Positions 17,325 to 49,987 of a stretch of 64,000 nt of DNA are shown here, piece after piece. Positions within the stretch are counted from its first letter, which is position 1; the number at the start of each line of letters is the position of its first letter. Origin of the DNA: a virus (taxonomy: Duplodnaviria; Caudoviricetes); IMG/VR virus record IMGVR_UViG_3300046786_000226, positions 1-64,000 of that record, one strand, 5' to 3'. A program made the translations under genes and the position numbers. The notes beneath the pieces are model-generated. The model was not told the origin of the DNA, made no database searches, and saw nothing but the letters and a program-made list of their open reading frames with translations.

Positions 17325-17674
17325 TCTTTTCCTTGTAATTCTTCTATTACAGTTGTAATAGTATTAGCGACATTCAATGCCGCTTGTTTGCCTAAGATCA
17401 GTGAATGTTGATCTTCTCTATAACCATGTATTAAAATATCCCAAGCGGCTTTAATACGACTAAAGCCTGGTTTCCACAATGGCGTGGTAGTATTTACATA
17501 AAAAGTCATTTCAATGTCTTGCGTATCTTTATCACCATTTAGTTCAATCCACATATGAACTTGGTGATCTCCGTCATGACAATCGCAGGCAATGGTATAC
17601 GCTTTGCTTTTACCGTAATCTGCGTCAAACATTATACCTGCCGCAGGTGTTTGTGCTTTCATTACTTGCCCCAT
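17321..17674 (-). CDS. hypothetical protein
   Basis: 117 aa, CDC..DH motif. Confidence 0.7.
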   Translation of the reverse strand: MGQVMKAQTPAAGIMFDADYGKSKAYTIACDCHDGDHQVHMWIELNGDKDTQDIEMTFYVNTTTPLWKPGFSRIKAAWDILIHGYREDQHSLILGKQAALNVANTITTVIEELQGKE

Positions 17675-18522
17675 CCATTACTCCAGATGTCAACGTGTAG
17701 TCTAGGACTATAACGATAACCTTTTTCTAAGGCAATGTCAGCAATGTGTTTACTGTTAGCAAAGTAAGCCGCATCTGTACCGCCTACAGGCATAACAAAT
17801 ACTGGGCCTTTGAAGCCTGCTTCACGATACTCTGCAGTAGCGGCATCTACTTCTTTAAAGTCTTCTAGAGTATCAACTACAAACTTCAAATAAGTAAAAC
17901 CACGTGTTTGATATTCTACAACTACTTCGGGACAGATAGCATCCTTCCACAGTTCGCCACTGGCACTTAGCTTAGGACTAACGCTAAATGTAATTTGATC
18001 TTTGCGTAGATGATAGTCGTTCATTAAGAATCTTTTAAAATCCTCATGCAAGTGTTGAGTGCCGTTTGTCTCGAAAGTTAAGTTTTCGAGATCGCGCATC
18101 TTGTTTTCACTTAGCAAATCTGGATACAGTTGTTGCCAACCCAGCAAAGGTTCACCGCCAGTAATAACAAGATGAACGTCGTTGCCATTGTCTTGTTTCC
18201 AAGCATGATTGGGGGTTAACTCGAGCATCTTATCAATAGCTTCGTCGATACTGTAATACGGACTTAGGTGTTTAAATGCAGGATGCCATGACGCATAACT
18301 GTCACAGCCTGTTTGTGCCAATGGCAAATCCATAAAAGTTGGATATAGATTAACAACTTGAGCAATGTCATCTGGCTCTGTAGTTTTCAAGCCTCGCTCT
18401 AGGCCAAAGCCCGGGCATTTGAAGTTACAACCAAATGTTCTAAAAAATACTGAAGGTACGCCAATAAAGCGACCTTCGCCTTGTGCGCTATAAAAGATTT
18501 CACTTACTTTAATTTTATCCAT
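17662..18522 (-). CDS. queE: 7-carboxy-7-deazaguanine synthase (radical SAM)
   Basis: SEIFYSAQGEG, FFRTFGCNFKC...CDS, VITGGEPL, FETNGT, SVSPKL, SPRLH. Confidence 0.9.
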   Translation of the reverse strand: MDKIKVSEIFYSAQGEGRFIGVPSVFFRTFGCNFKCPGFGLERGLKTTEPDDIAQVVNLYPTFMDLPLAQTGCDSYASWHPAFKHLSPYYSIDEAIDKMLELTPNHAWKQDNGNDVHLVITGGEPLLGWQQLYPDLLSENKMRDLENLTFETNGTQHLHEDFKRFLMNDYHLRKDQITFSVSPKLSASGELWKDAICPEVVVEYQTRGFTYLKFVVDTLEDFKEVDAATAEYREAGFKGPVFVMPVGGTDAAYFANSKHIADIALEKGYRYSPRLHVDIWSNGWGK

Positions 18523-32909: not shown

Positions 32910-35555
32910 TTACCCGAACAACATATCGAAGCTAGTTTTTTGATCACTAGCACTGATATCCCAGTCAAGAACTCCAATTAGGTTGTCCACTTTATTGTCA
33001 ATAATAGTAGCTTCCATGGCCGCATTATCAAAAGATAATTCTTTAAACCATTCTGGTAGTCTAAGTTCATCTGTTGGATAAGCGATACTTGTAATACCCA
33101 TTGGATTGGATTTTAGTTTACAAACAATAACTTTCATACCATCAGTAATATCCATACTGCGTTGGTCACTGTGTGCTTTCTTAAATCTGTTCCAATTGAT
33201 AGCCGCCATAGCATGTCCAACTCCGCACTTGCCAGTCTTTTCAAAATTCTCAGTATGTTTGGTTAAGTTATTAACACGCTTAGGAGTACCTTTCTCCCAT
33301 CCTGGTCGCTCTTTGAACTTTGTTCTAAACTCATTGATAGCATCAATAACGTCTTGCTTGTCCTGTCCATTAAGAACCATTAGTAGAATCTGCTCAAGAA
33401 ACTTTTGCATGAACTCGGGAGTGTCTGATCTCTTAAGGTCAAGACCCATGGCCTTAATCTCGCCAAGCTCTCCGTTTATATCTTTGCGTTTACCTTCCTT
33501 ATCATAGATAAGAACAGCATAACGCTTTTTAGTAATGAACAAGCCTTTTGATGCAACAACCTCTCGACCGGCTTTAATAATCTCACCATAGTTAGTGGGA
33601 CAATTAAATGCGTGATTCATAAAGCCAGGGAATGTGGCATTAACTTCATCGGCTACAGTATCGTATAACTCGATAATTTTATCACGAGTCCATTCGAGTT
33701 CATTTCTAGCAATTTGTTCTTTATAAATTGGATAAGCACTAAAATAACAAGAGTCAGTATCACCATAGATAATAGTCTTACCTAAGTGATCATATTCTCC
33801 TGTGAACATTTCATTTACTTGACCTGCCATATGCTTGGCAACTTGCCTGCCACATAGTGTTGTACTTTGTCCTAATCGAATATCGAAGAACCTAGAACCT
33901 GCGTTAAGTAAAGCACCATACAGTGAGTTCAAATTAATCTTTTTGACTAACTGTCGCTTGTCCCAATATTCAAACATATCAGTGCCATATGCTTCTTTGG
34001 CTTTCTTTTGTAAGTCTTTGCGCTCGCTGTACCAACGGGCTAGCAAGCCAGGAATAACGCCTTGCTTTTCAAAAGTAAACAATGTACCGTTAGCAGTCAA
34101 CATCCAAGGATTGCCACTTAGATAAATTAACTCATGTGCTTCTGCCGCTGACATTTCTGTGCTTCTGCCATCTTCCCAATCTATAATAATGGTATAGGCT
34201 TTATTCCTTGCCATAACTTGTTCGTATTCATGAATAGCAAATTTACCATCCCAATAATCAGCAAAGCCTTCGCCCTTAGCTAACCAATCTTTAAGTTCTT
34301 GCTTAGTTTGTTGCTGTCTAATCTGTCCAACAATAGTCTCTGGACTCATGTTAAGCGCACGAATTAGAGAGGGATACAGACTGTTCAAGTCCATTGATCC
34401 AATCCAATCGTGAATGCCTTTTTTGGGATACGCAACATAAGCACCTGCTGCCTGTGTTTCAATCCCATCACCACGCTTACGATCCAAGACCATTAAGCCA
34501 CGACTGTGAGCTTCGTTGATAATCGCTTGGTCAGTCATAGCCACTGCGCCCATTGTTGTGCGTAGTGTAACTGTGTTTGCGTGTGCCAATACGTTAACTA
34601 AGTCAATGTATTGTAGTTTGGCATCCATCTTGTAAAGCAACATAGTATCTTGTCTGTTATAAGCAATAAACTTTTCAAAGTCATTGTTATACAGTTGATC
34701 CAATGTGCCTTCGTAATGAACTTTAGTTTCACCAATCTCAATCTCACCGACATAGTCAAGACGATATGTATGAAGTTCATGATAGGTATACTTGCGATAT
34801 AGATCAAGATAGTCTAAGTGTACACGACCAACAAAGTCATATGTTTCGCTGATCTTGCCATACTTTTCGTATTCACGCTTTTTAGGTTTTTGACCCCACA
34901 AGCAGAATCGTTTAGTATGCTCTGCGCTCATTATTTTAATAATGCGATTAACAGTATAAGGTACGTCATAGCCTTCGCTGTTCCAGCCACTGATAATGTC
35001 AGCATCGTCGATGAGAGTTAGAAATGTTTCTAACATATCTACTTCGTCTGTACAAAGAATAGTGTCTTCAAAACGGGCAACGATTGCTTCTGCTTGATCC
35101 TGAGACATCTTTTCTGGTTTAATAACCATTGTAATTAGTTTGTCTAACCAGCCGCAATGTACAGAGATAGCAGTAATAGGATTGAAAGGATCGCTGGGAT
35201 CAGCAAAGCCTTTTTCTTTATTGTACGCAACTTCGATATCGAAGAATGCCTTATTAAGTTTTGGAGCATCAGCATTGAGATAATTTGATTCTAAACAACG
35301 ATTAAGAGGTTTGACATCACTTTCATAAAGTTGTTTGTGTCCGTAAATACGCTTTTCTTTTTCAAAAGCCTTATTACTAGACACAGCAACTTTGCTTAGT
35401 CTCTTACCATCAATGCCTGTGTATTGACCTTTATTGTCTTGGTAGTAAAACAAATAATGTGCTGGAAAGCTTTTAAACTTCCTAACGCCATCGACTCGTT
35501 CTACAACATTGATAAGGTCTTTATCTTTTACATAAACTGCGTCAACATAACTCAT
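32910..35555 (-). CDS. family B DNA polymerase (T4 gp43-like)
   Basis: Exo FFDIEV, SGWNSEGYD, YNRQD; pol MDLNSLYPS, KINLNSLYG, YGDTDS, KKRYA. Confidence 0.97.
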   Translation of the reverse strand: MSYVDAVYVKDKDLINVVERVDGVRKFKSFPAHYLFYYQDNKGQYTGIDGKRLSKVAVSSNKAFEKEKRIYGHKQLYESDVKPLNRCLESNYLNADAPKLNKAFFDIEVAYNKEKGFADPSDPFNPITAISVHCGWLDKLITMVIKPEKMSQDQAEAIVARFEDTILCTDEVDMLETFLTLIDDADIISGWNSEGYDVPYTVNRIIKIMSAEHTKRFCLWGQKPKKREYEKYGKISETYDFVGRVHLDYLDLYRKYTYHELHTYRLDYVGEIEIGETKVHYEGTLDQLYNNDFEKFIAYNRQDTMLLYKMDAKLQYIDLVNVLAHANTVTLRTTMGAVAMTDQAIINEAHSRGLMVLDRKRGDGIETQAAGAYVAYPKKGIHDWIGSMDLNSLYPSLIRALNMSPETIVGQIRQQQTKQELKDWLAKGEGFADYWDGKFAIHEYEQVMARNKAYTIIIDWEDGRSTEMSAAEAHELIYLSGNPWMLTANGTLFTFEKQGVIPGLLARWYSERKDLQKKAKEAYGTDMFEYWDKRQLVKKINLNSLYGALLNAGSRFFDIRLGQSTTLCGRQVAKHMAGQVNEMFTGEYDHLGKTIIYGDTDSCYFSAYPIYKEQIARNELEWTRDKIIELYDTVADEVNATFPGFMNHAFNCPTNYGEIIKAGREVVASKGLFITKKRYAVLIYDKEGKRKDINGELGEIKAMGLDLKRSDTPEFMQKFLEQILLMVLNGQDKQDVIDAINEFRTKFKERPGWEKGTPKRVNNLTKHTENFEKTGKCGVGHAMAAINWNRFKKAHSDQRSMDITDGMKVIVCKLKSNPMGITSIAYPTDELRLPEWFKELSFDNAAMEATIIDNKVDNLIGVLDWDISASDQKTSFDMLFG

Positions 35556-37579: not shown

Positions 37580-37587
37580 AGTTTTAT

Positions 37588-37845
37588 TTATTGACTCTCA
37601 CCAACAGCACGACCTTTGAAAGGATGCTGTTTAGGTGCTTTGCCTAACACTGGACTAGTCTTTTTTGGCATTTCAGTTGCAGGAACTTGTTTAGCTTTCT
37701 TTTGACCAGCATCTAAGTCCTCGCCAATCTCCTTACAGCTACCTTTTTCGTTTCGTTTCTTGCCTGGTACTTTTCTAAAACCTGGCCAGCACTTGTCGTA
37801 GATTTTGCTATTACCGTGTGCTTCGAGGAGTTCTTGTATTTTCAT
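37588..37845 (-). CDS. putative virion internal protein, basic Cys module
   Basis: N-terminus MKIQELLEA; KCWPGFRKVPGKK..SCK. Confidence 0.65.
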   Translation of the reverse strand: MKIQELLEAHGNSKIYDKCWPGFRKVPGKKRNEKGSCKEIGEDLDAGQKKAKQVPATEMPKKTSPVLGKAPKQHPFKGRAVGESQ

Positions 37846-37846
37846 A

Positions 37847-38269
37847 TTAACAATTCCATTTGCGTAATGCCAATGCCTTGCGTGTTGGCTCGCCGTTGTC
37901 CTTTTTCATAGGGCCTTTCATGCCACCCATTCTAGCACAGAATGATTTACGACGTTTGGCAGCTTTACTGCCTTTTTTAAGTTTACTAGGTTTAGTTGTC
38001 ACAGCAGTTTGTAATTTACTACCAGGATGTTCCCTGCGATAGCTGGCAACACCTTTGGCATTTAAACCGCCATTTTTATTCTTACCTGACTTCTTTTGCC
38101 AAGCGGCAGATTCTTTTAGTAAGTCATCATCGTCTAGATCTTCAAAGTCTTCCCAAATTACATCAGCATCGACGCCATGCTGTTCGGCAAGTTGTTCTAC
38201 CCATTCTTCAATGATATCAAATTGAGAATCTAAGTCTTGGATTGATTCAGTAAGTTCGTATAATCTCAT
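37847..38269 (-). CDS. putative virion internal protein, basic C-terminal domain
   Basis: MRLYELTES; LKESAAWQKKSGK..RRKSFCARM..LRKWNC. Confidence 0.7.
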   Translation of the reverse strand: MRLYELTESIQDLDSQFDIIEEWVEQLAEQHGVDADVIWEDFEDLDDDDLLKESAAWQKKSGKNKNGGLNAKGVASYRREHPGSKLQTAVTTKPSKLKKGSKAAKRRKSFCARMGGMKGPMKKDNGEPTRKALALRKWNC

Positions 38270-39177
38270 TTGTCTTCTGCGCTCTTAGATAACATTACTT
38301 TACCTTGTAATGTAGGATTGTTTTTAACCATAGCAAGTGCATAGTTATTGGCGCCACGTTTCCAATCAAAGGACTTTGCTACACCTTTTTGTTTGTATAT
38401 TCTACCATCTATGCGAATATACCATGGACCACGATCTTTGTCAATTTGTTGTTGACGTAAGTTACGTTCAAAGTTAGGATCATCTTCATGTCCTAATTCG
38501 TGTTGCATTTCTCGACGTTTAAAGTCACGCTTGCCTTGATCCATTTGATCTTGTTGATAGCTATCGTAGTTAGTAGCACTCATGGTGTCTGGATTACGAC
38601 TGCCGTATCTACCAGCTTCCGACACACCTTCATTTACTTTGACGCCATATTTTTGTAATAGTTGAGCAGTTTTTTGTGCCCACTGCTTGTTATTTTCAGC
38701 AGATGCACCAGACATGCCTCTAACAATGGTTATGTTTAAGTCTGCGTGTTCTTTAGCATATCGAGGATTCTGTTCAATCATTGCAAAATGTTGCTGTTGT
38801 ACTTTGTTAATAAACGTTGTGTCATTTGCGCCGGCTTGAGCATTAGTGGCAGCACCAACCCCAGCGGCACCTAATGCCGCTGCCGCTCCAAATTTTAAAA
38901 ATCCTCTGCGACTCATATCGGCTTCGTCTACGTCACTACCCATGCCATCTAGTGTTTGTTCAACTTGTCTAACCCAACCACTGACATCACTGCTACCAAT
39001 TTCTTCTGTGTCGCCAACAAAGTCAGAAACATCATCAATTGCGGCCATGACTTTTTGTGGGCCATATTTTTGTAACAAGTCTGAACGTTGCATCATAATA
39101 CGACGAGTGATAGCACCAGCTACTGGACTATCGCTTTCAGTTAAACTGTGTTCTTGTGCAAATTCAAATAATCTCAT
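38266..39177 (-). CDS. putative multi-domain virion cargo protein with internal Tat-like signal
   Basis: MRLFEF; internal MSRRGFLKFGAAAALGAAGVGAATNAQA. Confidence 0.75.
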   Translation of the reverse strand: MRLFEFAQEHSLTESDSPVAGAITRRIMMQRSDLLQKYGPQKVMAAIDDVSDFVGDTEEIGSSDVSGWVRQVEQTLDGMGSDVDEADMSRRGFLKFGAAAALGAAGVGAATNAQAGANDTTFINKVQQQHFAMIEQNPRYAKEHADLNITIVRGMSGASAENNKQWAQKTAQLLQKYGVKVNEGVSEAGRYGSRNPDTMSATNYDSYQQDQMDQGKRDFKRREMQHELGHEDDPNFERNLRQQQIDKDRGPWYIRIDGRIYKQKGVAKSFDWKRGANNYALAMVKNNPTLQGKVMLSKSAEDK

Positions 39178-40424
39178 AGTACAGACCTAATCTCTTCTCT
39201 AGATTTATAACCTTCAGCTACATAACGTAGTTGTTCGATAAACTCACGAACTGGACGTGGACGACCTTTTGGCATCATAGCACTTTCTGCACGTCTAGAT
39301 GGACGACCTCTTGCGCTCTTATATGCTTGTAATTGTACCGCTGATACTTTTTTGCCTGCTTTTTGTGACAATGTACCAGCACCAGAATTCCATGAACCTA
39401 CTACAGCAAATTTATCGCCACTTGGAATAACTGCTACTGCGTTTTCTGCGCTACCTACAATTTTGCGCTCTGGGTGTAATCTCTTAGACTTGTGATACCA
39501 TAGTCTATAATCTGTAATCTTTTCGCCAGCATCAGTTGTTTGAATACTAGCACTAGGACGGCCTGCGGCTCTAGGAACAGCAGTGGCTTTAGCCGCTACT
39601 TTAGCTGCCTTGGCCGCTGCCTTGGCAGCAGGCTTTTTGTTGCCCCACTCATCGTAATCATCTTCGTCGCCGTCATCGCCTTGATATTCGCTGCCGTATT
39701 TGCCTTTGTGTACCATGCCACCACTTGTTTTGGTTACTGTAGTACCCATGCCTGTTTTGCGTGACTTATCATTGAAACCATACCAGTCGTCATCATCTTC
39801 ATCGTCATAACGCTCACTGATTTTTTTCTTGCTTTCAGTAATAGATTCTGTAATATAATCATGCACGTCCTGATCAAAACGCATATGAATCCATTCATAA
39901 GGATCACCATCACGGCCTTTAGCTGTGCCATATGGCATTTCGCCATGTAGGAAATAGTAATCGTATAATGCGTGATATAACTCATCACTTAGTTCAGCAC
40001 CTGCGGCAAAGTCTTTAACTTCCTTAGGGAAACGTTTTACAATGTGTGCCAATGTATCATTTTGTTCTGGAGCCGCTTCTGCCACTGGTACAGCTTCTTG
40101 AACGCCTGGCTGTCCAATACGTGTAGCCGCTGCTTGCGCCATTTCTGGACCACGATCTTTGTACAACATATTACGCATACTAGACATGATTTGATCAAAT
40201 GCTCTTGGGTCAGATAACATTTGCATGAATTGTTCTTGACGACCATTTTGTAATGCTTTTTTATACAAGCCATATACAAATCTAGCTTCTGGGTGTTCTA
40301 ATGTAACTGGTTCTCCGCCAAGTGTAATAATAGCTTCGGAGCCCGTAGTTGCCGCATTGGCAATAGATTTTAAATTGTTTGCTCCAGCAATTACTGGGCT
40401 TTCAAATAGTTCAAATAAATTCAT
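39174..40424 (-). CDS. putative multi-domain virion cargo protein
   Basis: MNLFELFES; VQEA, VAEA, ITESITES, ISER linkers. Confidence 0.75.
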   Translation of the reverse strand: MNLFELFESPVIAGANNLKSIANAATTGSEAIITLGGEPVTLEHPEARFVYGLYKKALQNGRQEQFMQMLSDPRAFDQIMSSMRNMLYKDRGPEMAQAAATRIGQPGVQEAVPVAEAAPEQNDTLAHIVKRFPKEVKDFAAGAELSDELYHALYDYYFLHGEMPYGTAKGRDGDPYEWIHMRFDQDVHDYITESITESKKKISERYDDEDDDDWYGFNDKSRKTGMGTTVTKTSGGMVHKGKYGSEYQGDDGDEDDYDEWGNKKPAAKAAAKAAKVAAKATAVPRAAGRPSASIQTTDAGEKITDYRLWYHKSKRLHPERKIVGSAENAVAVIPSGDKFAVVGSWNSGAGTLSQKAGKKVSAVQLQAYKSARGRPSRRAESAMMPKGRPRPVREFIEQLRYVAEGYKSREEIRSVL

Positions 40425-40427
40425 GAT

Positions 40428-41060
40428 TTAACCTTTATAATTGCTGAAGTCGAAAACTTTTCTTAGTCTGTCGTAGGCTTCAGTGCTTATTTCTTCTTTT
40501 ACTTCTTCTTTATCGTTTGTACCGTGGTCTGTTGTTTTTGTAAATTCTTTACCACCTACTGTAAACTTATCACCTTTTTTAACTTGACGCATAGCATCAA
40601 CAAAAGCATTGCGTTCTGCAATAGAAGCTGTACTTTCTTGTGGAACATCTTTCTTAGGATTGCCGGATTTGATAATATTAGCAATATTTTGAATTGTTTG
40701 GTCATCGCCATTTTTCAAAATACTTAAAAACGCATCAGCAAGAGTTAGTGTATCTTGTCTTGTTGGATTGCCAACTAGGCTACGTTGAATAGCAGTTCTT
40801 AAAACTCTAGGATCAACACCAATCTCACCGCCAAGCTTGTTTATATTGTAGTGTGTGCCTTGACCTGGTGTTTCATTGCCGCCTGCCTGTTCGATGCCGC
40901 TTGGTGCTACGGCAGCTTCGCGTATTTTTTTCATTTCTTCTTGTAAACGAGCAATCATTGAATTGCGTTCAGAAAGTTGTTGTTCGTTTAACTCACTGGC
41001 ATTTACGTTACTTAAACGAGTTGCTAGTTCATACATTTTGCGGGCTTTTGCTTTATCCAT
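40428..41060 (-). CDS. putative head internal/core protein
   Basis: Start MDKAK overlaps upstream stop; IREA, VKEE linkers; NAFVDAMRQVKKGDKFTVGGKEF module. Confidence 0.7.
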   Translation of the reverse strand: MDKAKARKMYELATRLSNVNASELNEQQLSERNSMIARLQEEMKKIREAAVAPSGIEQAGGNETPGQGTHYNINKLGGEIGVDPRVLRTAIQRSLVGNPTRQDTLTLADAFLSILKNGDDQTIQNIANIIKSGNPKKDVPQESTASIAERNAFVDAMRQVKKGDKFTVGGKEFTKTTDHGTNDKEEVKEEISTEAYDRLRKVFDFSNYKG

Positions 41061-41277
41061 TATTAATCCTTTTTTCGATCCATTTAGCTTCCAATGCACT
41101 TGCCAATTCTTCGGCTATATTTGCATATGGTATTCTGCGTAATATTTCAGCACCTGATTCCTTACGCATACTTCTTGTTTTTCTCTTGCGGTGCATTCGC
41201 ATAAATGGCATAGAAACAGTAGAAATACTACCTGAGCCCATACCATCTGTGTCTTCTGTTAGTTCTTGGATCTTCAT
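41053..41277 (-). CDS. small putative virion internal protein
   Basis: MKIQELTED; TAAATA 5 nt before ATG. Confidence 0.65.
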   Translation of the reverse strand: MKIQELTEDTDGMGSGSISTVSMPFMRMHRKRKTRSMRKESGAEILRRIPYANIAEELASALEAKWIEKRINNG

Positions 41278-41320
41278 AAGTTTATTTATCGAATTTGTTT
41301 CGATTTATTTTAAATTTAAG

Positions 41321-42427
41321 TTACAGTAATTCCCAGCCGATAAACTGTGGATTCTTTAAGCTTTGTACACGTACTGTAGGATTTGATTCAAACATGCCAT
41401 TGGCATAGCGTACATAGATATCTAGTTCAGCATTATCTTCGCTGTCAGGACGACCAATAACAGCAATAAATCGTTGACTAGTGCCGTCAGGTTGGGCATA
41501 CTTTAAACCTTTTAACTTAAGATCCGCTACTTCATCTTGTGCTGGAACATAGTAAAATCCTTTGGCACTTAGGTAATAGTAAGGCTTGTCGCCAAAGCGT
41601 AGAATACTGCTTAACTTGCCAGCTTTGTTTAATGTTTGTTCGATGGTAACTTCAAATACTTTGGCAATTTTAGAATACATTGGCGTAGCATAAGCTTTTT
41701 TAGTGGCCCAGTTAGCTTGGAACCAATCGCCGAATACACGCTGCCATTGTGAGTTTTTAGTGATAGCACCCATTATATCTTGGCCAGTCATTGAAATATT
41801 CTTGTCGCCTTTTAAATTGATAATATACTTTTTAGTTTTACTATCGTAGGTAATGCCATAACGATCGATAGGAATCAAAGGTACATCTGGAGTACTTTGT
41901 GCGGCGTTAAGTACATCAGTGAATACCTTTTCTTTCATGTCTTGATATTCTGTGCCAGCATGCATGGCAAACACGTCAACACCGCGATCTGTTAGAATAC
42001 CCAGAGCTGCTGGAGTTAAGTTAGCCAATGTAATACCGCCTTCTGCTTTGACACTAATACCGGCTGTGGCACCGCTTTCAAATTCAATGTCAGTAACACC
42101 TGCGGCAATGTTTTGTCCACCTGCCCATCCTAGTTTAGTGGGAGCAGGCCCTTGTTTGGCTACAACCTTTTCACGTACCATAGAACCTTTTCCAGCCCAA
42201 GCATCGAAAGTAGCTTGATCAAAGTTAGGTACTAACAAGCTTTTAATGTCCTTGTATGTTTGTTCGGGATTTATTAAGATTCCTGCAGGAATAGATTTTT
42301 CAGGATTCCTAGGGTCAAATTTACCGTGACCTACTAGGCCATAAAGCAAGCCCACTTCGCTATTGTAGCGAATACCACCGCTTTTGCCGCCTTCGGTTAT
42401 GGCTTGTTTAAGTTCTAATAATTTCAT
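41321..42427 (-). CDS. putative PD-(D/E)xK-like nuclease with cargo-type N-terminus
   Basis: MKLLELK..ITEG; SEVG..VTDIEF..GISVKAEG. Confidence 0.5.
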   Translation of the reverse strand: MKLLELKQAITEGGKSGGIRYNSEVGLLYGLVGHGKFDPRNPEKSIPAGILINPEQTYKDIKSLLVPNFDQATFDAWAGKGSMVREKVVAKQGPAPTKLGWAGGQNIAAGVTDIEFESGATAGISVKAEGGITLANLTPAALGILTDRGVDVFAMHAGTEYQDMKEKVFTDVLNAAQSTPDVPLIPIDRYGITYDSKTKKYIINLKGDKNISMTGQDIMGAITKNSQWQRVFGDWFQANWATKKAYATPMYSKIAKVFEVTIEQTLNKAGKLSSILRFGDKPYYYLSAKGFYYVPAQDEVADLKLKGLKYAQPDGTSQRFIAVIGRPDSEDNAELDIYVRYANGMFESNPTVRVQSLKNPQFIGWELL

Positions 42428-42446
42428 AATATTATATTTATTTCAA

Positions 42447-43067
42447 TTAAATCTTGTCTAACAAATCTCTGTTAGATCTTAAGTATGCTTTGGCATTGTT
42501 TAAATCATCGAAGGCTTTGATTGTAACACCGTTGCCATCAATGACATGATAACGAACTTCAGTTGAATCGTCGACACGTTTACGAGTCAAACGTTTAATG
42601 TATGCTCTACCATCGTCGATGCTTTCTTTTACGCCTGAACCTGTGTCTACATTATATGATCCACTAGATCTTGAAATCTGATGTTTAGCTTCCCATACTT
42701 CGTTCAATAGCAAATCAACTAATTTACTACCCAAATCTTCTTCTGCCCACTCTATCATACTTTCTCTAAATTCTGTATCGTAGCTTAAGACAGCATCTGC
42801 GAGATCAAACCAATTTGGAGAACCGTTACTGTTTAGTTTATTATAGGCTTCTCTAACGTCTGAAAGATCTTGTCCCCAACTTATTTCTTCTGGATTTTCT
42901 TCATCGTAGTCATTATCCTGAGCAGTTCCTAATGATATTATTATTTCAGATAAAAACTTCTTTACTGCTGATACTGTGTTAGTAGGAGCAGGCCTGAAAA
43001 ATTTCGCATAAGTTTGTTTCATCAAATCGCTGTGATAATTTTCGCTTATTATTTCGTTGAATCTCAT
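42447..43067 (-). CDS. putative virion cargo protein
   Basis: MRFNEIISE; LNEVWEA, VKES linkers. Confidence 0.7.
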   Translation of the reverse strand: MRFNEIISENYHSDLMKQTYAKFFRPAPTNTVSAVKKFLSEIIISLGTAQDNDYDEENPEEISWGQDLSDVREAYNKLNSNGSPNWFDLADAVLSYDTEFRESMIEWAEEDLGSKLVDLLLNEVWEAKHQISRSSGSYNVDTGSGVKESIDDGRAYIKRLTRKRVDDSTEVRYHVIDGNGVTIKAFDDLNNAKAYLRSNRDLLDKI

Positions 43068-43068
43068 T

Positions 43069-43518
43069 TTATTTTCCTATCCTGCTTAGTTCATATATTA
43101 CTTTGTTGCCTGTATCAGCACGAAAGGCTCTAAAGCCCCAAGCTCTAGCATAACGCTGAACTAAGCTGTCATATAGTCTGGCTCTACTCTGTGCGTTCTG
43201 TCCTTGTTCAACTTCTTTGCTAGCTGAAAAGATTACTTTATTAGGCTTGTATTTCTTAATAAACTTTTGAATAGCACTTAATACTGTAGCAAATACTCGT
43301 TGAGCATCACCTTCACCTGTTACTTCTTGGCTGTTGTTTCTAAAGAATTCAACGTTCCATGCTTCTTCTTTATCTTGGTTATAACCTTTATTGAACATAA
43401 TGCTTAGATAGTTACCATCATCTAATTTAGCGTATGCGTCAATATCACCATAGTCTCCTTGTTCCCAACGAAGTTGGTAGGGTTGATCAAATGCTTCTTT
43501 TAATTCCAGTAATCGCAT
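43069..43518 (-). CDS. putative virion cargo protein, function unknown
   Basis: MRLLELKEA; single globular domain. Confidence 0.7.
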   Translation of the reverse strand: MRLLELKEAFDQPYQLRWEQGDYGDIDAYAKLDDGNYLSIMFNKGYNQDKEEAWNVEFFRNNSQEVTGEGDAQRVFATVLSAIQKFIKKYKPNKVIFSASKEVEQGQNAQSRARLYDSLVQRYARAWGFRAFRADTGNKVIYELSRIGK

Positions 43519-43519
43519 A

Positions 43520-45874
43520 TTATTCTTGACTCATTACAGGAACCATTACAGGCACCATTCTAAGGCCTTCTGTATGCTCGTGTCCATTATTTCTTATCCA
43601 CGGAACGGCTGCTCTATAAGCATCTTCTGCATTATTACCAACGCCACTGAGGCGATATAATTCTCTGCCAGTTCCGTCTACTAATTTCCATATACCTGTA
43701 AATCTGCCACCTTCGTGCCGACCAAATGTTGGCAGTGGCTCGTTTTCTCCCACTGGCTCGACTTGATAGTTACCGTCAAAGTTATTTTCTCTTGCCCATA
43801 AGGCAGCAAACTCATTGGCAAATGCTCGTGTATTGTTAGCGGCAAAGAATACATATAATGGTCTACCAAGCCCGTCTATTATTTTCCATCGGTGAGTTGG
43901 ACTTGTTTGAGCACGGCCTTGTTGAGCGTCATTGCGTTGGCGCTGTAAATCTAATGTACTTCCTGGAATAGGTGCTGACAATACCGAGCGAACATCATAA
44001 TCAGTTGGGTCTCCGGGTAAACCTAAGTCGGCTAAATGTCCGGCAATTTTGTTGGCAGCATCATCTGGACTATTTGCTCTAAATACAATAGGGCGACCTG
44101 AATTTCCTATCACTGTTCTGCCGTCGGCTTTGCGATACAATTCATATTCTGACGATTGTCCTACACTGCCGGCTGGTTGTGGTTCACCTACTGTTGCTTT
44201 AACAGGACTTTCATCATATGGCTTAATTGGCTTTGCTGTCATGTTTGTAGCGTTTGCCCAATCTGGGTATTCTGATTTGCCTTTTTGTATAGCTTCTTCT
44301 TTGCTAGTAGCAACGACTTGAACACTAGCACCGAATCCTGGACGACCCACACTCCACCAATATTTTTGTCCACTTGTTGGATCTTTTTGTACTTTACGTT
44401 CTAACTGCGCTTGACGAACAAAACTCTTTAACGCACTCTGTGGTAATTCGCCGGCAGCATATCTAGCAAAATAAGCTAATGTGTCAGTGCCTGTGCTTTC
44501 ATTGCCTGTTAATAATTTATAAAGTTTCTTTGCGTATTCTTGTTTGTATTTTGTTTCGTCTACTGCGGCATCCATAGCAACAACAAAACGATATAGTGTA
44601 TTTTCAATCTTGTCAAAGTTATCGTTTAACCAATCGCCACCTGGACTACGGAATTCGATGTAGCCTGTTTTAGTATTAATACTTGTATACTTTGATGTAC
44701 TACCACTGTGAATTATTTTAGATGCACTGGTGTTTAAGTGTTCGCGCATTTTGTCTAACAATGCTTTTGTATCATCTGGTCGTTGTACGATATGATTTTT
44801 AACCATCTTAAGGGCACTCTTACAGTAAGTATTGCCTTGACGACCAAACTCCTGTAATACGTATTCGTCGCCCATTAGAATAGCAAGCTTGACAAAGTCT
44901 AAATTAGCAATGTTGCCATCCCAATTAGGAACACTGACGTTAATGTGTAAACCTGTACTGTCATTTGTATAGCAACCAGTTTTGTCTGCCCACGCTTTAA
45001 CTTTCTTTAAGTCTTCGATTAATTCATTAACAGGCATAGGAGGGCTAACAAATTCCAATCCACCGTCTGCATCGTCATCTGGCTCTAAACTACCATCGGG
45101 TTCTACAACATAGTGTCCTGGCTCTCGACGTGCGCCATGATAGTTATTGCTGGAGTTGATTGGCTTACCAATAGCACGACTGAAACTATCTGCGGCATCA
45201 TCTATACTAACTTCTCCAGTTTCTCTTTCTGGAGTAAAGTAATGTGGCCAAACAATGTGGTAATTACTTTCCACATCCTGCATAGTATTAATATCAGCAC
45301 TTTCAAGCCATTCGCTTTCTAAATCAGCACTACCATAAAAATTATCACGGAAATCTTCTTCAGCTTCTTCATACCAAGGATTGATTTGATCTTCTGAGAC
45401 TTTGGCGGCAGCGTTTCTATAATCTTCTTTTGTAGGATCCGGATAGTTGCCGTTTTCATCTTCTTCTACACCTAATATACCAAATACATCACTAGGAGCG
45501 GCATTATAGCGTAGCCAATCATATATGACTTCATCTTTATCTGTTTCCCAACGATCCGCTAAATGTTGGTCCAACCATTCATGATAATCTTCAGTCATTT
45601 TATCGCGAAGTTGTTCACAGTCTCTACGACTGTTAAAATCACCATCATAGAAGAAATCAAAGGCATCTTGAATACTGTTTACGCTTTCATCCGCATCGTA
45701 GTCTGTTTCTCGATAGTCATCATCATAATCATCATCGCCTTGGCTTGCACCTGGAACAATCATTTCAAATTCCATACCAGCTTGTGCGTTAATGTTAGCA
45801 ACAAGACTGCGTAGGCCAGCAGGGCTCATATTAATTTCATTGATGATTTGTTCGAATATTTCTTTGTATTTCAT
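43520..45874 (-). CDS. putative amidoligase (COOH-NH2 ligase type 2) with tandem C-terminal modules
   Basis: GMEFEM, EPDGSL, GLEFVSPP, TNDSTGLHINVS, KYTSIN, IEFRSPGG; N-terminus MKYKEIFE. Confidence 0.8.
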   Translation of the reverse strand: MKYKEIFEQIINEINMSPAGLRSLVANINAQAGMEFEMIVPGASQGDDDYDDDYRETDYDADESVNSIQDAFDFFYDGDFNSRRDCEQLRDKMTEDYHEWLDQHLADRWETDKDEVIYDWLRYNAAPSDVFGILGVEEDENGNYPDPTKEDYRNAAAKVSEDQINPWYEEAEEDFRDNFYGSADLESEWLESADINTMQDVESNYHIVWPHYFTPERETGEVSIDDAADSFSRAIGKPINSSNNYHGARREPGHYVVEPDGSLEPDDDADGGLEFVSPPMPVNELIEDLKKVKAWADKTGCYTNDSTGLHINVSVPNWDGNIANLDFVKLAILMGDEYVLQEFGRQGNTYCKSALKMVKNHIVQRPDDTKALLDKMREHLNTSASKIIHSGSTSKYTSINTKTGYIEFRSPGGDWLNDNFDKIENTLYRFVVAMDAAVDETKYKQEYAKKLYKLLTGNESTGTDTLAYFARYAAGELPQSALKSFVRQAQLERKVQKDPTSGQKYWWSVGRPGFGASVQVVATSKEEAIQKGKSEYPDWANATNMTAKPIKPYDESPVKATVGEPQPAGSVGQSSEYELYRKADGRTVIGNSGRPIVFRANSPDDAANKIAGHLADLGLPGDPTDYDVRSVLSAPIPGSTLDLQRQRNDAQQGRAQTSPTHRWKIIDGLGRPLYVFFAANNTRAFANEFAALWARENNFDGNYQVEPVGENEPLPTFGRHEGGRFTGIWKLVDGTGRELYRLSGVGNNAEDAYRAAVPWIRNNGHEHTEGLRMVPVMVPVMSQE

Positions 45875-45876
45875 AG

Positions 45877-46134
45877 TTAGCCTACAACTTTCGCAGTAAT
45901 TTTATATTTATTGTAATAATGATTGATATCAAAAATAGCAGATTTGTAATCATCGACAAGCCAATGATATACATAAAACTTTAACAAGCTTTTAGAATCC
46001 TCGCTGAACTTTGTAGCCGTTACTCTTGCTAATGCCAATGACGGATAGCGACTTTTTAATTTAGAAATAATATACTCGTCGTATGTGTCTACTTCGACAT
46101 CAAGTGTAGTATATGTTTGATCAACACGCTTCAT
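45877..46134 (-). CDS. hypothetical protein
   Basis: 85 aa; lacks the cargo motif. Confidence 0.6.
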   Translation of the reverse strand: MKRVDQTYTTLDVEVDTYDEYIISKLKSRYPSLALARVTATKFSEDSKSLLKFYVYHWLVDDYKSAIFDINHYYNKYKITAKVVG

Positions 46135-47372
46135 TTTTTATGTTTAAAATAATTAATACGACGCTCTTGCTTCTCTACCCAATCCTTGCTGGGTTTGCCA
46201 TCGCCTTTAAAATATACCAAAGGACGACCTTCTCGTTTACTTACTATGGCCCAACGCTTGTGTATCTTACGAAGGTATTCCAATAAGTTGGCAGCTTCTT
46301 CTTCTAGATTGTATTCTTCGCTGTCTGTAATTTGTTTTAAGTTGTGCTTTTTCAACCATTGCTGATATTCATATGGTGTTCTGAATTCTTTTCTTTTATT
46401 AGCAACTGCTTTAGGATCATAATAAAGACGTTGTTTAGTAATCTCTAATGGGTCATGTGCTTTTTCATCACCAGCAAAGAAGTCACGCATAGTAGATAAA
46501 CTTGTAGCTTCTTCTAAGTCAGCAACCGCAAAGCCAATATAACTATCGCCATTCTCGTCGCCTGATTGTACAACAAAGGCACCGCCTTCTTCTGATTCTA
46601 ATTCGCCAATTTCCCAACCCATACGTGCTAGTACTTGCTCTACTTGTTGCTGTGTGCCCAAGTCTCCATTGTACCACATACGAGCATATTTGTGTAATGT
46701 TTCTTCTTCTCCGCCATCGCCTGCGTCTGGAGCAAATTCATTTAAGCTTTCGGATACTGCTAGTCGTTTGTCAAATATTTGTTTAATCTTTTTTAACTGT
46801 CTACTCTGCGGATATAAGTCTTGTAGAATACTTAATTTAGTTTGATCATCTGCACCGCTGTATAGTTCTCTAACTTGACTGCCGCTGTAAACAGGATTAC
46901 CGGCAATACTAAAGTCGTGCTTTTTAGTCACAAAAATATAGGCATGCTTGCTAAAAGGTTCTGCACCTTGTATACCTTGCCATGGTTGATAGTAACTCAC
47001 ATCCGTTGTTTTCATTGGATCACGTTCACTGCGAACAATTACCAATACGTCGCGTTCTGGATTGAATTTTTGTAATACTTCTAAAGGATTTAACGGAGTG
47101 CTGGTTACTTTGCGACCATTGTCATTGACATAGCTCATTGTACCTACTTGTATAAATGGATCGACTACGCCTGCTTGCTGTGCTAAAAATTGTTTTTCTT
47201 TAAATTCAAATGGACGCTCTGTGGTTACGTTACTGGCAGCAACAAAGAAATGTGCGCCAGGAAAAGCTGTCTTAGCTTCTCTATAACTGCTGGCATGTCC
47301 TTCATGAAAGGGTTGAAAGCCGCCTCCATAGACAACTATAATGTTTGGTTGTTTAACTTCTAATAATCTCAT
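46131..47372 (-). CDS. HxGH nucleotidyltransferase fused to extra domains
   Basis: YGGGFQPFHEGH, YSGSQVRE; MRLLEVK; VSESLNEF and LEEA linkers. Confidence 0.75.
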   Translation of the reverse strand: MRLLEVKQPNIIVVYGGGFQPFHEGHASSYREAKTAFPGAHFFVAASNVTTERPFEFKEKQFLAQQAGVVDPFIQVGTMSYVNDNGRKVTSTPLNPLEVLQKFNPERDVLVIVRSERDPMKTTDVSYYQPWQGIQGAEPFSKHAYIFVTKKHDFSIAGNPVYSGSQVRELYSGADDQTKLSILQDLYPQSRQLKKIKQIFDKRLAVSESLNEFAPDAGDGGEEETLHKYARMWYNGDLGTQQQVEQVLARMGWEIGELESEEGGAFVVQSGDENGDSYIGFAVADLEEATSLSTMRDFFAGDEKAHDPLEITKQRLYYDPKAVANKRKEFRTPYEYQQWLKKHNLKQITDSEEYNLEEEAANLLEYLRKIHKRWAIVSKREGRPLVYFKGDGKPSKDWVEKQERRINYFKHKK

Positions 47373-48649
47373 TAGCGTCTTGCTTTCAAAAAGTTCTCAC
47401 GACTGAATTCTAATCTGTCTACGATTTTAACTGCTTCAGTGCCGCCTGTGCCTAAATGGTCAACAATAACAACACCCTCTTCTGGCTTAACATCAAAGCT
47501 GCCATCTGGTCTAGCAATAAATGTATTGATTTGACGTATTCTAGCATAGTGTAATTGTAACACATCTTTAACACGTTGTATACCCAGGAATAAGAAGTAA
47601 ACATTGGTAATGCTTTCTTCGTGCTGTCTAATAAATTTCAATGCTTCTTCCTGTGCTTGTCGTTTACGGTCTTGACCAGTTTGTGTTTTTAGTTTAGCAA
47701 TATCAGCAGTTAAACGTTCTTCTAACCGTCCAACAAACTTGCTAACATACACTGCAGGTTGATCCATTAAACCGCTACGCACCATTTTGTTTACGTCAAT
47801 TTTAATTAAGTCTCTAATGCCATGGCCAGCAATACTGGCTTCTAACCATTGGAATGTTTCTTGGCCAATACCCTGCAAGAAACTTGTTAGTTCAGTGATA
47901 GCATGTTCTAATTTATATGTTTCTTCTCTAGTCAATGTTACGCTACCGCTGACATCTTTTAATGCGGCATCTCTATAATAGACAAACGGACTAGATCCTA
48001 GTTCGCTGGTATCAGCACCAAAGCGGGCCTGCATGTCACTGATGCTGGTGCCTTCATAGGTTGTATGGAACACAACACCTACTTTAACTTTGCTCATTTT
48101 CTGTGCCAATGGTGTATCAGCAGGAACAGCATAAGTTAATAAGTTAGGCTTAAATGTCCAATAGTTTTCGCCGTCGATTTGTTGAAAGCCACTGTCGCCA
48201 TCTCCTGCTGTCCATAACAAATCACCTTGAAGAATTTTATCTCCAAAGTTTAAATCTTTTAAGTAATTAAATGCTACCTTTAGTTTAGTTCTAAGTCCAC
48301 TGTAGTCTACTTTCGAACCGTCTTTGGCAGTTTTATCTGGCTTAATTCTATCAATGTCAGCGGCAGTATAGATTCTATTATCTTTAGTGCCAGCAAAAAT
48401 ACCTTTGTCGCCCATGATAAATTGTCCTGTTTCTGGATCAGTGCCTACAAATATAGCTGGGCTACCATCCCATTTCTTAGTGGCAAAATAACGGCCGTCT
48501 GTGTTACCATGTAATAGTCCAGCGGCTCCTTGTAAGTAGCTTATAGCTTCAACAGCACCTTGATAACCCCTGTTCCAGATTTCATCATCCAAGTGTTCTA
48601 AGTGTGTGTTCTTGCCTTCTACGGTTTCGACGAGTTGTTGTATCTTCAT
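47372..48649 (-). CDS. T4-like conserved protein with ligase-type KxDG motif (DUF6267-like)
   Basis: EGKNTHLEHLDD, KKWDGSPAIF, ILQGDLL, EEGVV, VKIVDRLEFSREN. Confidence 0.65.
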   Translation of the reverse strand: MKIQQLVETVEGKNTHLEHLDDEIWNRGYQGAVEAISYLQGAAGLLHGNTDGRYFATKKWDGSPAIFVGTDPETGQFIMGDKGIFAGTKDNRIYTAADIDRIKPDKTAKDGSKVDYSGLRTKLKVAFNYLKDLNFGDKILQGDLLWTAGDGDSGFQQIDGENYWTFKPNLLTYAVPADTPLAQKMSKVKVGVVFHTTYEGTSISDMQARFGADTSELGSSPFVYYRDAALKDVSGSVTLTREETYKLEHAITELTSFLQGIGQETFQWLEASIAGHGIRDLIKIDVNKMVRSGLMDQPAVYVSKFVGRLEERLTADIAKLKTQTGQDRKRQAQEEALKFIRQHEESITNVYFLFLGIQRVKDVLQLHYARIRQINTFIARPDGSFDVKPEEGVVIVDHLGTGGTEAVKIVDRLEFSRENFLKARR

Positions 48650-48657
48650 ATAGTTAG

Positions 48658-48663
48658 TATTTA
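48658..48663 (-). promoter_or_regulatory. T4-like late promoter (TAAATA) heading the cargo cluster; also at 42435-42440 and 41283-41288
   Basis: TAAATA 8, 7 and 5 nt before the respective ATGs. Confidence 0.55.
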
Positions 48664-48703
48664 TTAGAAATAAACATTTAATTGAAACAAATTGTAGTCA
48701 TGA

Positions 48704-48726
48704 AAAAGCCCACTCAGTGGGCTTTT
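48704..48726. terminator. intrinsic terminator, bidirectional shape
   Basis: AAAAGCCCAC-TCA-GTGGGCTTTT. Confidence 0.8.
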
Positions 48727-48738
48727 AATTGTGGTTAA

Positions 48739-49764
48739 TTAGTTTAAGTTAACCCATGCATTGCCAGTATAGCCTTTGAATACACCATTGTCTAAAACAA
48801 TCATGCCGGCTTCTGGTGGATTAGGTAAATTGCCGTTGCATTCAGCAACTTTCATGAAACCATTTACTCTTGCGCCACCGCCATCTACACGTAGCTTTTC
48901 TGTACCATTGCTAGATACACAAACTACGCCATCGGCTGGATGGAAAAGACCAGTATCAACACTACCGTCATTGCCAAATACTACGCTTGGATTGCTGGCT
49001 GTACCATCGCCTAATGTAATTTTATCAACATCAGGATTGCCGCCTAAGTCAGCATAGCTACCGCTAGAAGCTACCGCGGCCAAGTTTGGTTTGCCTGTTA
49101 AACTACCATATTGGCCGTCAAACAATGTTGGCTTGCTAGTCAAACTATCATAATCGCCATCAAACAATGTTGGCTTGTGTGTCAAGTCGTCATAGTCACC
49201 ACTGAACAATGTCGGCTTACTAGTTAAGTCGTCATAGTCACCACTGAACAATGTTGGCTTGTGCGATAAGCTGTCGTAGTCGCCATCAAACAATGTTGGT
49301 TTATTAGACAAATTATTGTAATCGCCATTGAATAAAGTTGGCTTATTAGTCAATGAATTGTAGTTACCGTCGAACAATGTTGGCTTATTCAATAAGTCAG
49401 CATATTCACCGCTGGTAGCAACAACTGATAAATCTGCTGTATTTGCTTTTAAGCCCAATTGTGTAGTAACTGTTGCGCTGAAGTTAGCATCGTTGCCCAA
49501 TGCTTGTGCTAGTTCGTTTAATGTGTCTAACGCACTACCAGCACCAGCTTTTAATGCAGTGATAGCATTATTAACATAAGTTTCGCTGGCCAAGCCTGCG
49601 ACGCTAGGAATAACATAATCTAGATCAGTCCATGGACTAGTTCCATTACCAATTTTAATATTGCCAGTAGTCAAGTCTAAACCAATTTCGCCTTGGCTAA
49701 GTGTTGGATCTGCTGTAGTCCAATTTACTGTAGTATCTCTTCTAAGTTGAATTTTGTTTGCCAT
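48739..49764 (-). CDS. tail fibre/whisker-like protein with Mtd_N-like N-terminus
   Basis: KIQLRRDT..W...DPTLSQGEIG, KIGNGTSPWTDL, ALDTLNELAQALGND, C-terminal FKGYTGNAWVNL. Confidence 0.75.
   Translation of the reverse strand: MANKIQLRRDTTVNWTTADPTLSQGEIGLDLTTGNIKIGNGTSPWTDLDYVIPSVAGLASETYVNNAITALKAGAGSALDTLNELAQALGNDANFSATVTTQLGLKANTADLSVVATSGEYADLLNKPTLFDGNYNSLTNKPTLFNGDYNNLSNKPTLFDGDYDSLSHKPTLFSGDYDDLTSKPTLFSGDYDDLTHKPTLFDGDYDSLTSKPTLFDGQYGSLTGKPNLAAVASSGSYADLGGNPDVDKITLGDGTASNPSVVFGNDGSVDTGLFHPADGVVCVSSNGTEKLRVDGGGARVNGFMKVAECNGNLPNPPEAGMIVLDNGVFKGYTGNAWVNLN
49033..49410 (-). repeat. 42-bp / 14-aa coding tandem repeat, 7 full plus 2 degenerate units
   Basis: GDYDxLTxKPTLFx units. Confidence 0.9.
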
Positions 49765-49765
49765 T

Positions 49766-49987
49766 TTAAGCTGCGCCTCCGTCTAATTCGATATCATCAA
49801 TTCCGTATACAGTCGTCGATGCTCCGCCGTCGACTTCGATAACCCCTGCAGAGTATCCTCTTGGACCCCTAGGACCTGGGTTACCTTTTTGGCCTGCAGG
49901 CCCTTGTGGACCATGTAATCCAGGTAAACCTCTAGGACCTTGTGGCCCAGTTAAACCACGTGGCCCGTTAATATATTGCACTGTCAT
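49766..49987 (-). CDS. short collagen-like protein
   Basis: About 13 Gly-X-Y triplets rich in GPR/GPQ, then DGG motifs. Confidence 0.85.

Follow-up and report, generated by a model that had tools for sequence, protein, structure and literature searches.

The DNA analysed here, referred to throughout as the window, comprised positions 1 to 64,000 of the IMG/VR virus record IMGVR_UViG_3300046786_000226 (Duplodnaviria; Caudoviricetes), that is, the first 64 kb of a single contig of 74,821 bp. Positions 37588-48649 are filled by 13 tightly packed genes on the minus strand, and 11 of their 13 products begin with a short tag of the pattern M-[KRN]-h-x-[EQ]-h (h, hydrophobic residue). The tagged starts are MKIQQLVET, MRLLEVKQ, MKYKEIFEQ, MRLLELKEA, MRFNEIISE, MKLLELKQAITEG, MKIQELTED, MNLFELFES, MRLFEFAQE, MRLYELTES and MKIQELLEA. 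An earlier reading of the same DNA (the original prediction) had reported this tag on 11 of 13 consecutive genes, no such start elsewhere and unrelated bodies behind it, and these claims held. Open reading frames (ORFs) were called by a simple procedure over the whole contig, and their N-termini were searched with the regular expression ^M[KRN][ILFVYM].[EQ][ILFV]. Within the block, 11 of the 13 ORFs matched; outside it, not one of 87 ORFs did (Fisher p = 5.5e-13). A six-frame scan added just three matches, which do not coincide with the start of any called gene. Judged by how often each residue occurs at each position in 700 untagged N-termini, the tag would arise by chance at a rate of ~0.003 per gene. 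Across the 55 distinct tagged N-termini, positions 3 and 6 were without exception L, I, F, Y or V and position 5 was E or Q, and the DNA of the 11 leaders differs from one to another. All-against-all BLASTP of the 13 proteins gave no match at E<0.01. Pfam placed DUF6267, CTP_transf_like, Amidoligase_2, DUF6934 and DUF6321 domains in the block and found no family for the remaining proteins. A megablast search with the block found no match among 50,697 phage records.

The first tagged gene (47372-48649; minus strand, as for all genes of the block) encodes a DUF6267 protein of 425 amino acids (aa; Pfam E 5e-79) with the leader MKIQQLVETVEG. The residues K59-W-D61-G62 were invariant in 45 sequences and match the ligase motif I (K-x-D-G). 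The top structural matches of its model were all RNA ligases, at middling Z values: 5cou (Naegleria RNA ligase; Z 7.9, root-mean-square deviation 3.8, 185 residues aligned), 1s68 (T4 Rnl2; Z 7.5) and 1xdn (REL1; Z 7.0). These data support, at the level of the fold, the prediction of an RNA-ligase-like nucleotidyltransferase, in agreement with the ligase-like enzyme of the original prediction. Two further enzymes named there were also recovered. The first is a nucleotidyltransferase of the HxGH type (46131-47372; 413 aa; motif GGGFQPFHEGH; leader MRLLEVKQPN; Pfam CTP_transf_like, TIGR00125), which carries additional C-terminal modules. The second is an amidoligase of 784 aa (43520-45874; leader MKYKEIFEQIINE) with an acidic N-terminal region and an Amidoligase_2 domain (PF12224) at residues 219-414 (E 1.8e-12; 48.1 bits against a cut-off of 22).

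Next in order are a DUF6934 protein (43069-43518; 149 aa), in which the leader MRLLELKEA is followed by FDQPY, a protein of 206 aa (42447-43067; leader MRFNEIISE) with a C-terminal module that starts after GVKE, and a protein of 368 aa (41321-42427; leader MKLLELKQAITE, then GGKSGG). The last of these belongs to a family that is widespread in uncultured phages (184 homologues, all metagenomic), and tblastn against cultured phages gave no match. Its residues D113, S125 and K127 are invariant. A structural model matched the restriction enzymes HinP1I (Z 4.5) and MspI (Z 4.0) weakly, the top match (Z 5.2) being an unrelated tail-lysozyme-like protein. The protein is possibly a nuclease of the PD-(D/E)xK type; given the weak fold matches, the nuclease-like assignment of the original prediction is a lead at most. 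Foldseek searches of the PDB with the models of the 368-aa and DUF6267 proteins yielded no match at E<=0.001, and a PDB sequence search with three block proteins returned nothing useful.

Towards the downstream end, a tagged protein of 416 aa (39174-40424; leader MNLFELFES) has no family match and possesses tagged orthologues of 37-87% identity. The adjoining protein of 303 aa (38266-39177; leader MRLFEFAQE) contains an internal insert of ~100 aa (residues ~84-185) that begins VDE↓ADMSRRGFLKFGAAAALGAAGVGAATNAQA (the arrow marks a cut or junction) and is missing from the orthologue in the related locus L003, the two junctions reading VDE↓A and VSE↓A. Within the insert (~38833-38916), a borderline signal resembling those of the twin-arginine translocation (Tat) pathway narrowly exceeded the TIGR01409 cut-off of 16.7 bits, with a score of 16.8 bits; proteolytic cleavage at VDE↓A would leave it two residues from the new N-terminus. 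The last two tagged products are a protein of 140 aa (37847-38269; leader MRLYELTES), with an acidic N-terminal half and a basic DUF6321 domain (Pfam E 1.4e-22) that also terminates much larger proteins in eight PHROG families, and a basic protein of 85 aa (37588-37845; leader MKIQELLEA) with a C-W-P-G-F-R-K Cys module. The latter module recurs at the C-terminal end of larger proteins in L018 (499 aa) and L003 (334 aa). A further module of ~50 aa (W-x-h-h-D-G-x-G ... A..W.R.N), detected only with a purpose-built hidden Markov model, ends three otherwise unrelated tagged proteins and their relatives (amidoligase, aa 652-705 and 721-771; 206-aa protein, aa 161-206; 303-aa protein, aa 246-294). 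This module matched LPD5, a Pfam domain of polyvalent proteins, faintly and below threshold (58-aa C-terminal module; 15.4 bits against a cut-off of 27, E 0.023), and no LPD or MuF domain scored above threshold in the block proteins.

Two ORFs of the block are untagged. One, of 85 aa (45877-46134), is kept directly upstream of the amidoligase gene in several relatives, with 85-aa ORFs of 61-69% identity at the same position in L018 and L022; as a matter of speculation, it could be a partner or inhibitor that remains in the producing cell. The other, of 210 aa (40428-41060; MDKAKARKMYEL), has orthologues that are untagged as well, and its start is overlapped by a tagged ORF of 74 aa (41053-41277; start MKIQELTED). 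The overlapping pair recurs in L003, L016 and L018. An A6 run lies ~20 nt upstream of the overlap; a programmed frameshift fusing the two ORFs was considered and rejected, as their relative frame differs in the close relative L003.

Whether the tag forms part of the protein bodies can be judged from three enzyme families that occur both with and without a leader, namely DUF6267, the HxGH enzyme and the 368-aa family. The strict tag was present in 104 of the 120 best cluster representatives of DUF6267, on leaders of 12-55 aa, such as MRFVEISKPLVTTIISESLFEAKE-GKNT and MRYSEISESFIRQIILEAE-NKNT; in the window, the leader is followed by KNTHLEHL. The DUF6267 protein of cyanophage P-HM2, which has no leader, starts at the domain (MSKNTHLEHLED). 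At the last x-x-E before the domain, P3 was I, L or V in 73 of 111 representatives, and P1' was mostly G, A or T. The HxGH enzyme continues after MRLLEVKQPN with IIVVYGGGFQPFHEGH, and its leaderless homologues in L024 (MTTVVIMPGGFHPFHAGH) and P-HM2 (MKKVYVTFGRLNPP) begin at the first strand of the fold, while those of the T4-like phages Melnitz and DLP_6 carry T4-like leaders (MKKFSEIIEA and MMKFTQFLAES, respectively). In the 368-aa family, among 114 aligned representatives, the residues before GGKS..RYNSE included L, I or V at P3 in 95 and E at P1 in 92, with G at P1' in 92. Leaders in this family measure 9-35 aa, and the leaderless member P0019 starts MGGKS. AlphaFold2 models (mean confidence scores, pLDDT, of 88.7 for the 368-aa protein and 86.0 for the DUF6267 protein) placed residues 1-15 of the former and 1-11 of the latter outside the fold as disordered.

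The same boundary is found within the proteins. Five sets of junctions were compared in which a module is part of a larger protein in one phage and free-standing in another, and in every set the module starts after h-x-E. The module SIDDGRAYI of the 206-aa protein follows GVKE in the window and constitutes a stand-alone ORF of 67 aa in L003 (MRLNEFINE↓SIDDGRAYI). The module FDQPY follows MRLLELKEA in the window and a 48-aa leader ending VTEA in L019 (HQAVTEA↓FDQPY). The module AG(G)RYGS follows VSE in the window (VSE↓AGRYGS), VVE in L003 (VVE↓AGGRYGS) and VKE in L016 (VKE↓AGWGRRY), and the Cys module stands after LLEA in the window and after FVSE in L018 (FVSE↓G). Finally, a segment common to the 413-aa protein and an untagged L018 protein follows AVSE↓ and TIKE↓. 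If cleavage occurred after h-x-E, the mature 368-aa protein would be predicted to start GGKSGGIRYNSE, the mature 149-aa protein FDQPYQLR and the module of the 206-aa protein SIDDGRAYIK.

Judged from its sequence, the contig is part of a T4-superfamily jumbo phage, of whose genome it represents ~21% according to CheckV. The family-B DNA polymerase (PolB; 32910-35555) is nearest to those of Rak2-like and Atu_ph07-like jumbo phages (43-49% identity). A closer relative in IMG/VR, G002 (235,561 bp, ~66% complete), is collinear with the contig over its positions 72-138 kb, shares 64 of the 100 ORFs and has a PolB that is 85% identical. A syntenic block beside genes for a Dps-like ferritin and PolB bears the same leaders in L003/L004 and L016-L023, and its content across these relatives is a mosaic in which gene sizes vary, domains are swapped and paralogues are gained and lost. 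Between the contig and G002 (96-109 kb), block genes are 43-57% identical or have no counterpart, as against 75-92% in the flanks, a faster divergence, as is typical where diversifying pressure acts on genes. The tag is thus not unique to the block in the window; it is family-wide in many uncultured phages. A degenerate DNA pattern for the tag gave 5 hits in T4 (4 in the control) and 15 in Atu_ph07 (6 in the control), in neither case a battery, so that the battery is specific to the lineage of this phage. A literature search yielded no published description of such leader arrays.

The strict tag was found in 12 of the 292 ORFs of G002, 10 of them in or next to the syntenic block. The eleventh, outside the block, is a glutaredoxin look-alike containing VVLFMKG, which we take to be a glutaredoxin motif, and is probably a chance match. 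The last, an ORF of 70 aa starting MKLFEVKHEDG (222618-222830), lies in the head gene module, whose order is Portal_T4, the tagged 70-aa ORF, a 270-aa ORF, Peptidase_S77 (L042:3773-4405), an ORF of 368 aa in the scaffold slot and the Gp23 capsid gene. T4 genes 20-67-68-21-22-23 stand in the same order, which puts the tagged ORF in the place of gene 67, a prohead-core gene. The gene-67-slot ORF of G004 starts MRSNEFLVEYY, that of the cultured phage Atu_ph07 (gp199) starts MKLTELFNPLTE, and both G002 and G004 encode Peptidase_S77 inside this portal/gene-67-slot/protease/scaffold-slot/Gp23 module. The capsid protein of G002 carries V/I-x-E sites (VME, VLE, IME↓S) where T4 gp23 is cut.

Atu_ph07 also provides virion data. 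Its gene products were paired with database records by gene length and predicted mass. The amidoligase of the window is 31.5% identical to Atu_ph07 gp196 over residues 187-461 (E 4e-27); the gp196 gene adjoins the portal gene, and in the published mass-spectrometry table of Atu_ph07 virions gp196 is listed with 14 peptides and 30% coverage (PMC6102473 supplement). DUF6267 is absent from Atu_ph07 and XacN1, so the proteomes of these phages cannot test its packaging. The pair of DUF6267 and HxGH genes was also observed in three cultured T4-like phages of heterotrophs, the Stenotrophomonas phage DLP_6, the Methylophilales phage Melnitz and the Pelagibacter phage HTVC008M, with leaders close to that of T4 (MMKFTQFLAES, MKKFSEIIEA and MKKFSELTSE, respectively); these phages would represent accessible systems for packaging tests. 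In cyanophage P-HM2, both members of the pair are leaderless.

We consider it probable that the tag belongs to a removable capsid-address leader of the T4 type, which ends in a prohead-protease site and serves to load a jumbo-phage head with shuffled enzymes and small basic proteins. Its predicted form is M-(K/R)-h-x-E-h, followed by 0-40 variable residues and an [LIV]-x-E site. In this scheme, the tagged proteins would be made late in infection, and the leader would dock them on the scaffolding core of the assembling prohead. A gp21-type prohead protease (Peptidase_S77) would then cut after Glu, also at the similar h-x-E junctions between modules, and the mature modules would remain in the head with the DNA, probably to be ejected into the next host. 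They would comprise the RNA-ligase-like enzyme, the HxGH nucleotidyltransferase, the amidoligase, a possible restriction-type nuclease and small basic Cys-containing proteins. For this phage, we infer core binding, cleavage, virion residence and ejection or injection. The reading is supported by the tag on the gene-67-slot head-core gene of relatives that encode Peptidase_S77, by variable leaders that end in [LIV]-x-E at the very boundary where leaderless homologues start, by the disorder of the leaders in models together with the start of shuffled modules after h-x-E, and by the listing of Atu_ph07 homologues in the virion proteome. Also in its favour are the confinement of the tag to the block on this contig, its T4-like h-x-E-h pattern, the terminator and late-promoter-like motifs at the head of the block, the latter also preceding the portal gene of G002, and the faster divergence of the block genes.

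Several points weigh against it. The evidence for this phage itself is indirect, the contig representing ~21% of the genome: a search that included Peptidase_S77 detected no protease, portal or capsid gene on its 74.8 kb. The T4-like packaging tag of the original prediction has comparative support for both tag and h-x-E site; the gp21-like protease and the tagged core protein proposed there as a check were found in G002 and not on the contig, which is a fragment. In G003, a more distant relative that is 99% complete, Peptidase_S77 gave no match. The leader is too short to prove homology with that of T4, from which it is offset by one residue. The enrichment of internal [ILV]-x-E-[AGS] sites is modest (15, compared with 8.9 +/- 2.8 in shuffled sequences, ~3% of which reach 15) and was not relied on. 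As for the virion data, Atu_ph07 gp199, the tagged protein of 77 aa, is represented by one peptide, and the virions were purified with polyethylene glycol and yielded 131 listed proteins including a topoisomerase subunit (PMC6102473 supplement), so that some entries may be contaminants. Moreover, the cyanophage DUF6267 and HxGH genes sit leaderless in replication modules; these enzymes clearly work in the cytoplasm, and packaging is no requirement for them.

This last point is also what favours the strongest of four rivals, according to which the common N-terminus is a helix that docks to a different partner or place (a cytoplasmic complex, the membrane, a chaperone) and the proteins act unpackaged in the producing cell: leaderless enzymes in cyanophage replication modules make a cytoplasmic role ancestral. 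We regard a docking helix as unlikely, since it would account neither for the [LIV]-x-E that closes leaders of differing length right at the domain boundary nor for the h-x-E that precedes shuffled modules, and would also leave unexplained the tag on the head-core gene in the gene 67 slot and the presence of homologues in Atu_ph07 virions. Considerably less credible is the view that the N-termini are functionless relics of tandem duplication or of recombination at a shared 5' segment. The block is indeed a recombination hot spot with extensive module shuffling, and the CTS-coding DNA of T-even phages (CTS, capsid-targeting sequence) is thought to act as a recombination site. Against such an origin, the 11 leaders differ in their DNA, and the pattern persists across families, at 41-93% identity, and in distant phage groups while the leader sequence itself varies, which argues for purifying selection on the pattern, not recent common descent.

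Signals of expression bear on a third rival. A T4-late-promoter-like motif (AATAAATA; 48658-48664, minus strand) lies 8 nt upstream of the first tagged gene, with further minus-strand copies at 45905-45911, 42435-42441, 41283-41289 and 37585-37591. The original prediction had TAAATA-type late promoters heading the units. This applies to 4 of the 11 tagged genes, which have NATAAATA 5-30 nt upstream (motif starts 48664, 45911, 42441 and 41289, minus strand); the same motif also precedes untagged genes, among them a cupin gene at 37579 and genes at 56737 and 53199. The remaining seven tagged genes lack NATAAATA and are packed tightly or overlap, so that they look co-transcribed with the gene upstream. 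In G002, a gene start follows within 60 nt of 39 of the 60 ATAAATA sites, often after 4-8 nt, and the portal gene is among the genes so preceded. NATAAATA is compatible with a T4-type late promoter (TATAAATA), though no proof of one, and is not specific to tagged genes. It usually ends 4-8 nt before the ATG, with no Shine-Dalgarno sequence between; if it is a late promoter, late mRNAs would often have little or no 5' leader. The tag could then reflect a constraint on translation initiation, for instance A-rich early codons, rather than a peptide signal, the first codons possibly mattering for initiation on such transcripts. We give this idea very little credence: untagged genes with NATAAATA-N5-ATG (cupin, 37579; 56737; 53199) lack the tag motif, seven tagged genes without NATAAATA are coupled to the gene upstream, conservation is by residue class (K/R, L/I/F, E/Q) with varied codons, and the motif is confined to 11 of 100 ORFs. 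The idea that the leader limits protein lifetime, as a signal for degradation or timing read for example by a ClpXP-type protease, appears equally far-fetched, for although Met-basic-hydrophobic loosely resembles a described N-terminal recognition motif of ClpX, such a role fits neither the h-x-E boundary rule nor the link to the head module nor the late-type promoters, and no data point to degradation. All four rivals explain less of the data than a capsid leader does.

The model for such a leader is the T4 CTS, which the prohead protease gp21 removes from IPI, IPII, IPIII and Alt (Mullaney & Black 1996; PMC3012670, PMC9026906). Residues 4 and 7 (Y and F) determine targeting and residues 8 and 10 (I and E) processing (PMC9026906). 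According to reviews, the first 10 residues of IPIII suffice for packaging, the internal proteins (IPs) of T-even phages are a diverse set with the CTS alone in common, and the prohead proteases of T4-type and giant phages all cut after Glu. In the sequence record of T4, the N-terminus of both IPII and IPIII reads MKTYQEFIAE↓A, and LTE↓A is found at residue 65 of gp23. The T4 core Y-Q-E-F displays the same h-x-E-h as IQEL, LLEL, LFEF, FNEI and YKEI here, and h-x-E plus a small residue follows in both. As a pattern match, the two further agree in being short N-terminal leaders on unrelated bodies, with M-K and hydrophobic residues three apart flanking x-E. Both belong to T4-superfamily phages (Peptidase_S77 of the relatives standing in a module ordered 20-67-68-21-22-23), and both mark a hypervariable gene set that includes small basic proteins. 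They differ in that 11 genes form one block here, compared with three IPs and Alt in T4, that bodies here reach 784 aa and include multidomain enzymes, that leaders measure 9-55 aa across homologues and are one residue shorter before the E-h pair, that h-x-E also bounds internal modules, and that the tag is common to the gene-67-slot protein, which is not so in T4.

Three other systems invite comparison. In phiKZ-like giant phages (phiKZ, 201phi2-1, SPN3US), ejection (inner-body) proteins are processed by gp175/gp245 at S/A/G-x-E (PMC5694885, PMC10052503). They resemble the present case in being giant phages with many head-internal proteins, whose N-terminal propeptides are cut after Glu by a gp21-related protease and have an inferred role in prohead targeting. 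Unlike the leaders here, phiKZ-like propeptides are mostly at least 100 aa long and have no single shared short motif; P3 is small (A/S/G) there and L/I/V here, and lineage and cargo (virion RNA polymerase in the phiKZ-like phages) differ as well. The polyvalent proteins of phages and conjugative elements, reportedly described by Iyer et al. in 2017, are said to be mosaics of modules proposed to travel with the DNA into the recipient. Shuffled enzymatic and small modules are common to both systems, and the LPD5 match noted above is a faint, sub-threshold link; in contrast to polyvalent proteins, most modules here are ORFs in their own right that each bear a leader, and are not joined into one giant protein. 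The cargo-loading peptides of encapsulins, in which a short terminal peptide loads unrelated enzymes into a shell of the HK97 fold, offer an analogy only: unlike the leaders here, they are C-terminal and uncleaved, belong to a bacterial nanocompartment and involve no delivery to another cell.

Beyond the block, two neighbourhoods may be described. A strong G+C-rich palindromic hairpin with a T run (48704-48726, minus strand), detected by a terminator scan and formed by 10 pairs, follows a tail-fibre-like gene and looks like the terminator closing it. The tail-fibre-like genes just upstream of the block (48739-49987) comprise one with an Mtd_N domain followed by KPTLF(D/S)GDY repeats and a collagen-like ORF with G-P-x repeats. 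At 16224-18522, N-termini resembling S-adenosylmethionine synthetase (MSYLFTSESVSEGHPD) and QueE (SAQGE) were observed; the N-terminal motifs suggest genes for 7-deazaguanine DNA modification. Such genes also accompany the lone homologue of the 368-aa family in L013 and L014.

A wider reading, which we put forward tentatively and consider doubtful as it stands, is that the leader and the h-x-E junctions constitute a general platform to load, cut and deliver proteins across a clade of uncultured jumbo phages. The kit pre-loaded in the head, consisting of the RNA-ligase-like enzyme, the HxGH nucleotidyltransferase, the amidoligase and the restriction-like nuclease, would be fast-evolving and would act at the very start of the next infection, before phage gene expression, and the 303-aa protein, once injected and cut at VDE↓A, might be re-exported to the periplasm of the new host by means of its Tat-like signal.

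Should the capsid-leader reading be right, the internal-protein system of T4 would be the minimal form of a much larger strategy, in which abundant aquatic jumbo phages address sets of enzymes to the capsid by a tag of 9-12 residues and rapidly exchange the cargo modules. A leader together with [LIV]-x-E would then be a sequence rule that predicts virion-borne, probably injected proteins from metagenomes alone, and DUF6267, DUF6321, DUF6934 and the 368-aa family would be candidate enzymes of counter-defence or take-over in the first minute of infection. The larger proteins of the block would provide natural examples of the limits within which large foreign enzymes can be loaded into capsids, and the reading would also account for the hypervariable blocks inside otherwise conserved jumbo-phage genomes.

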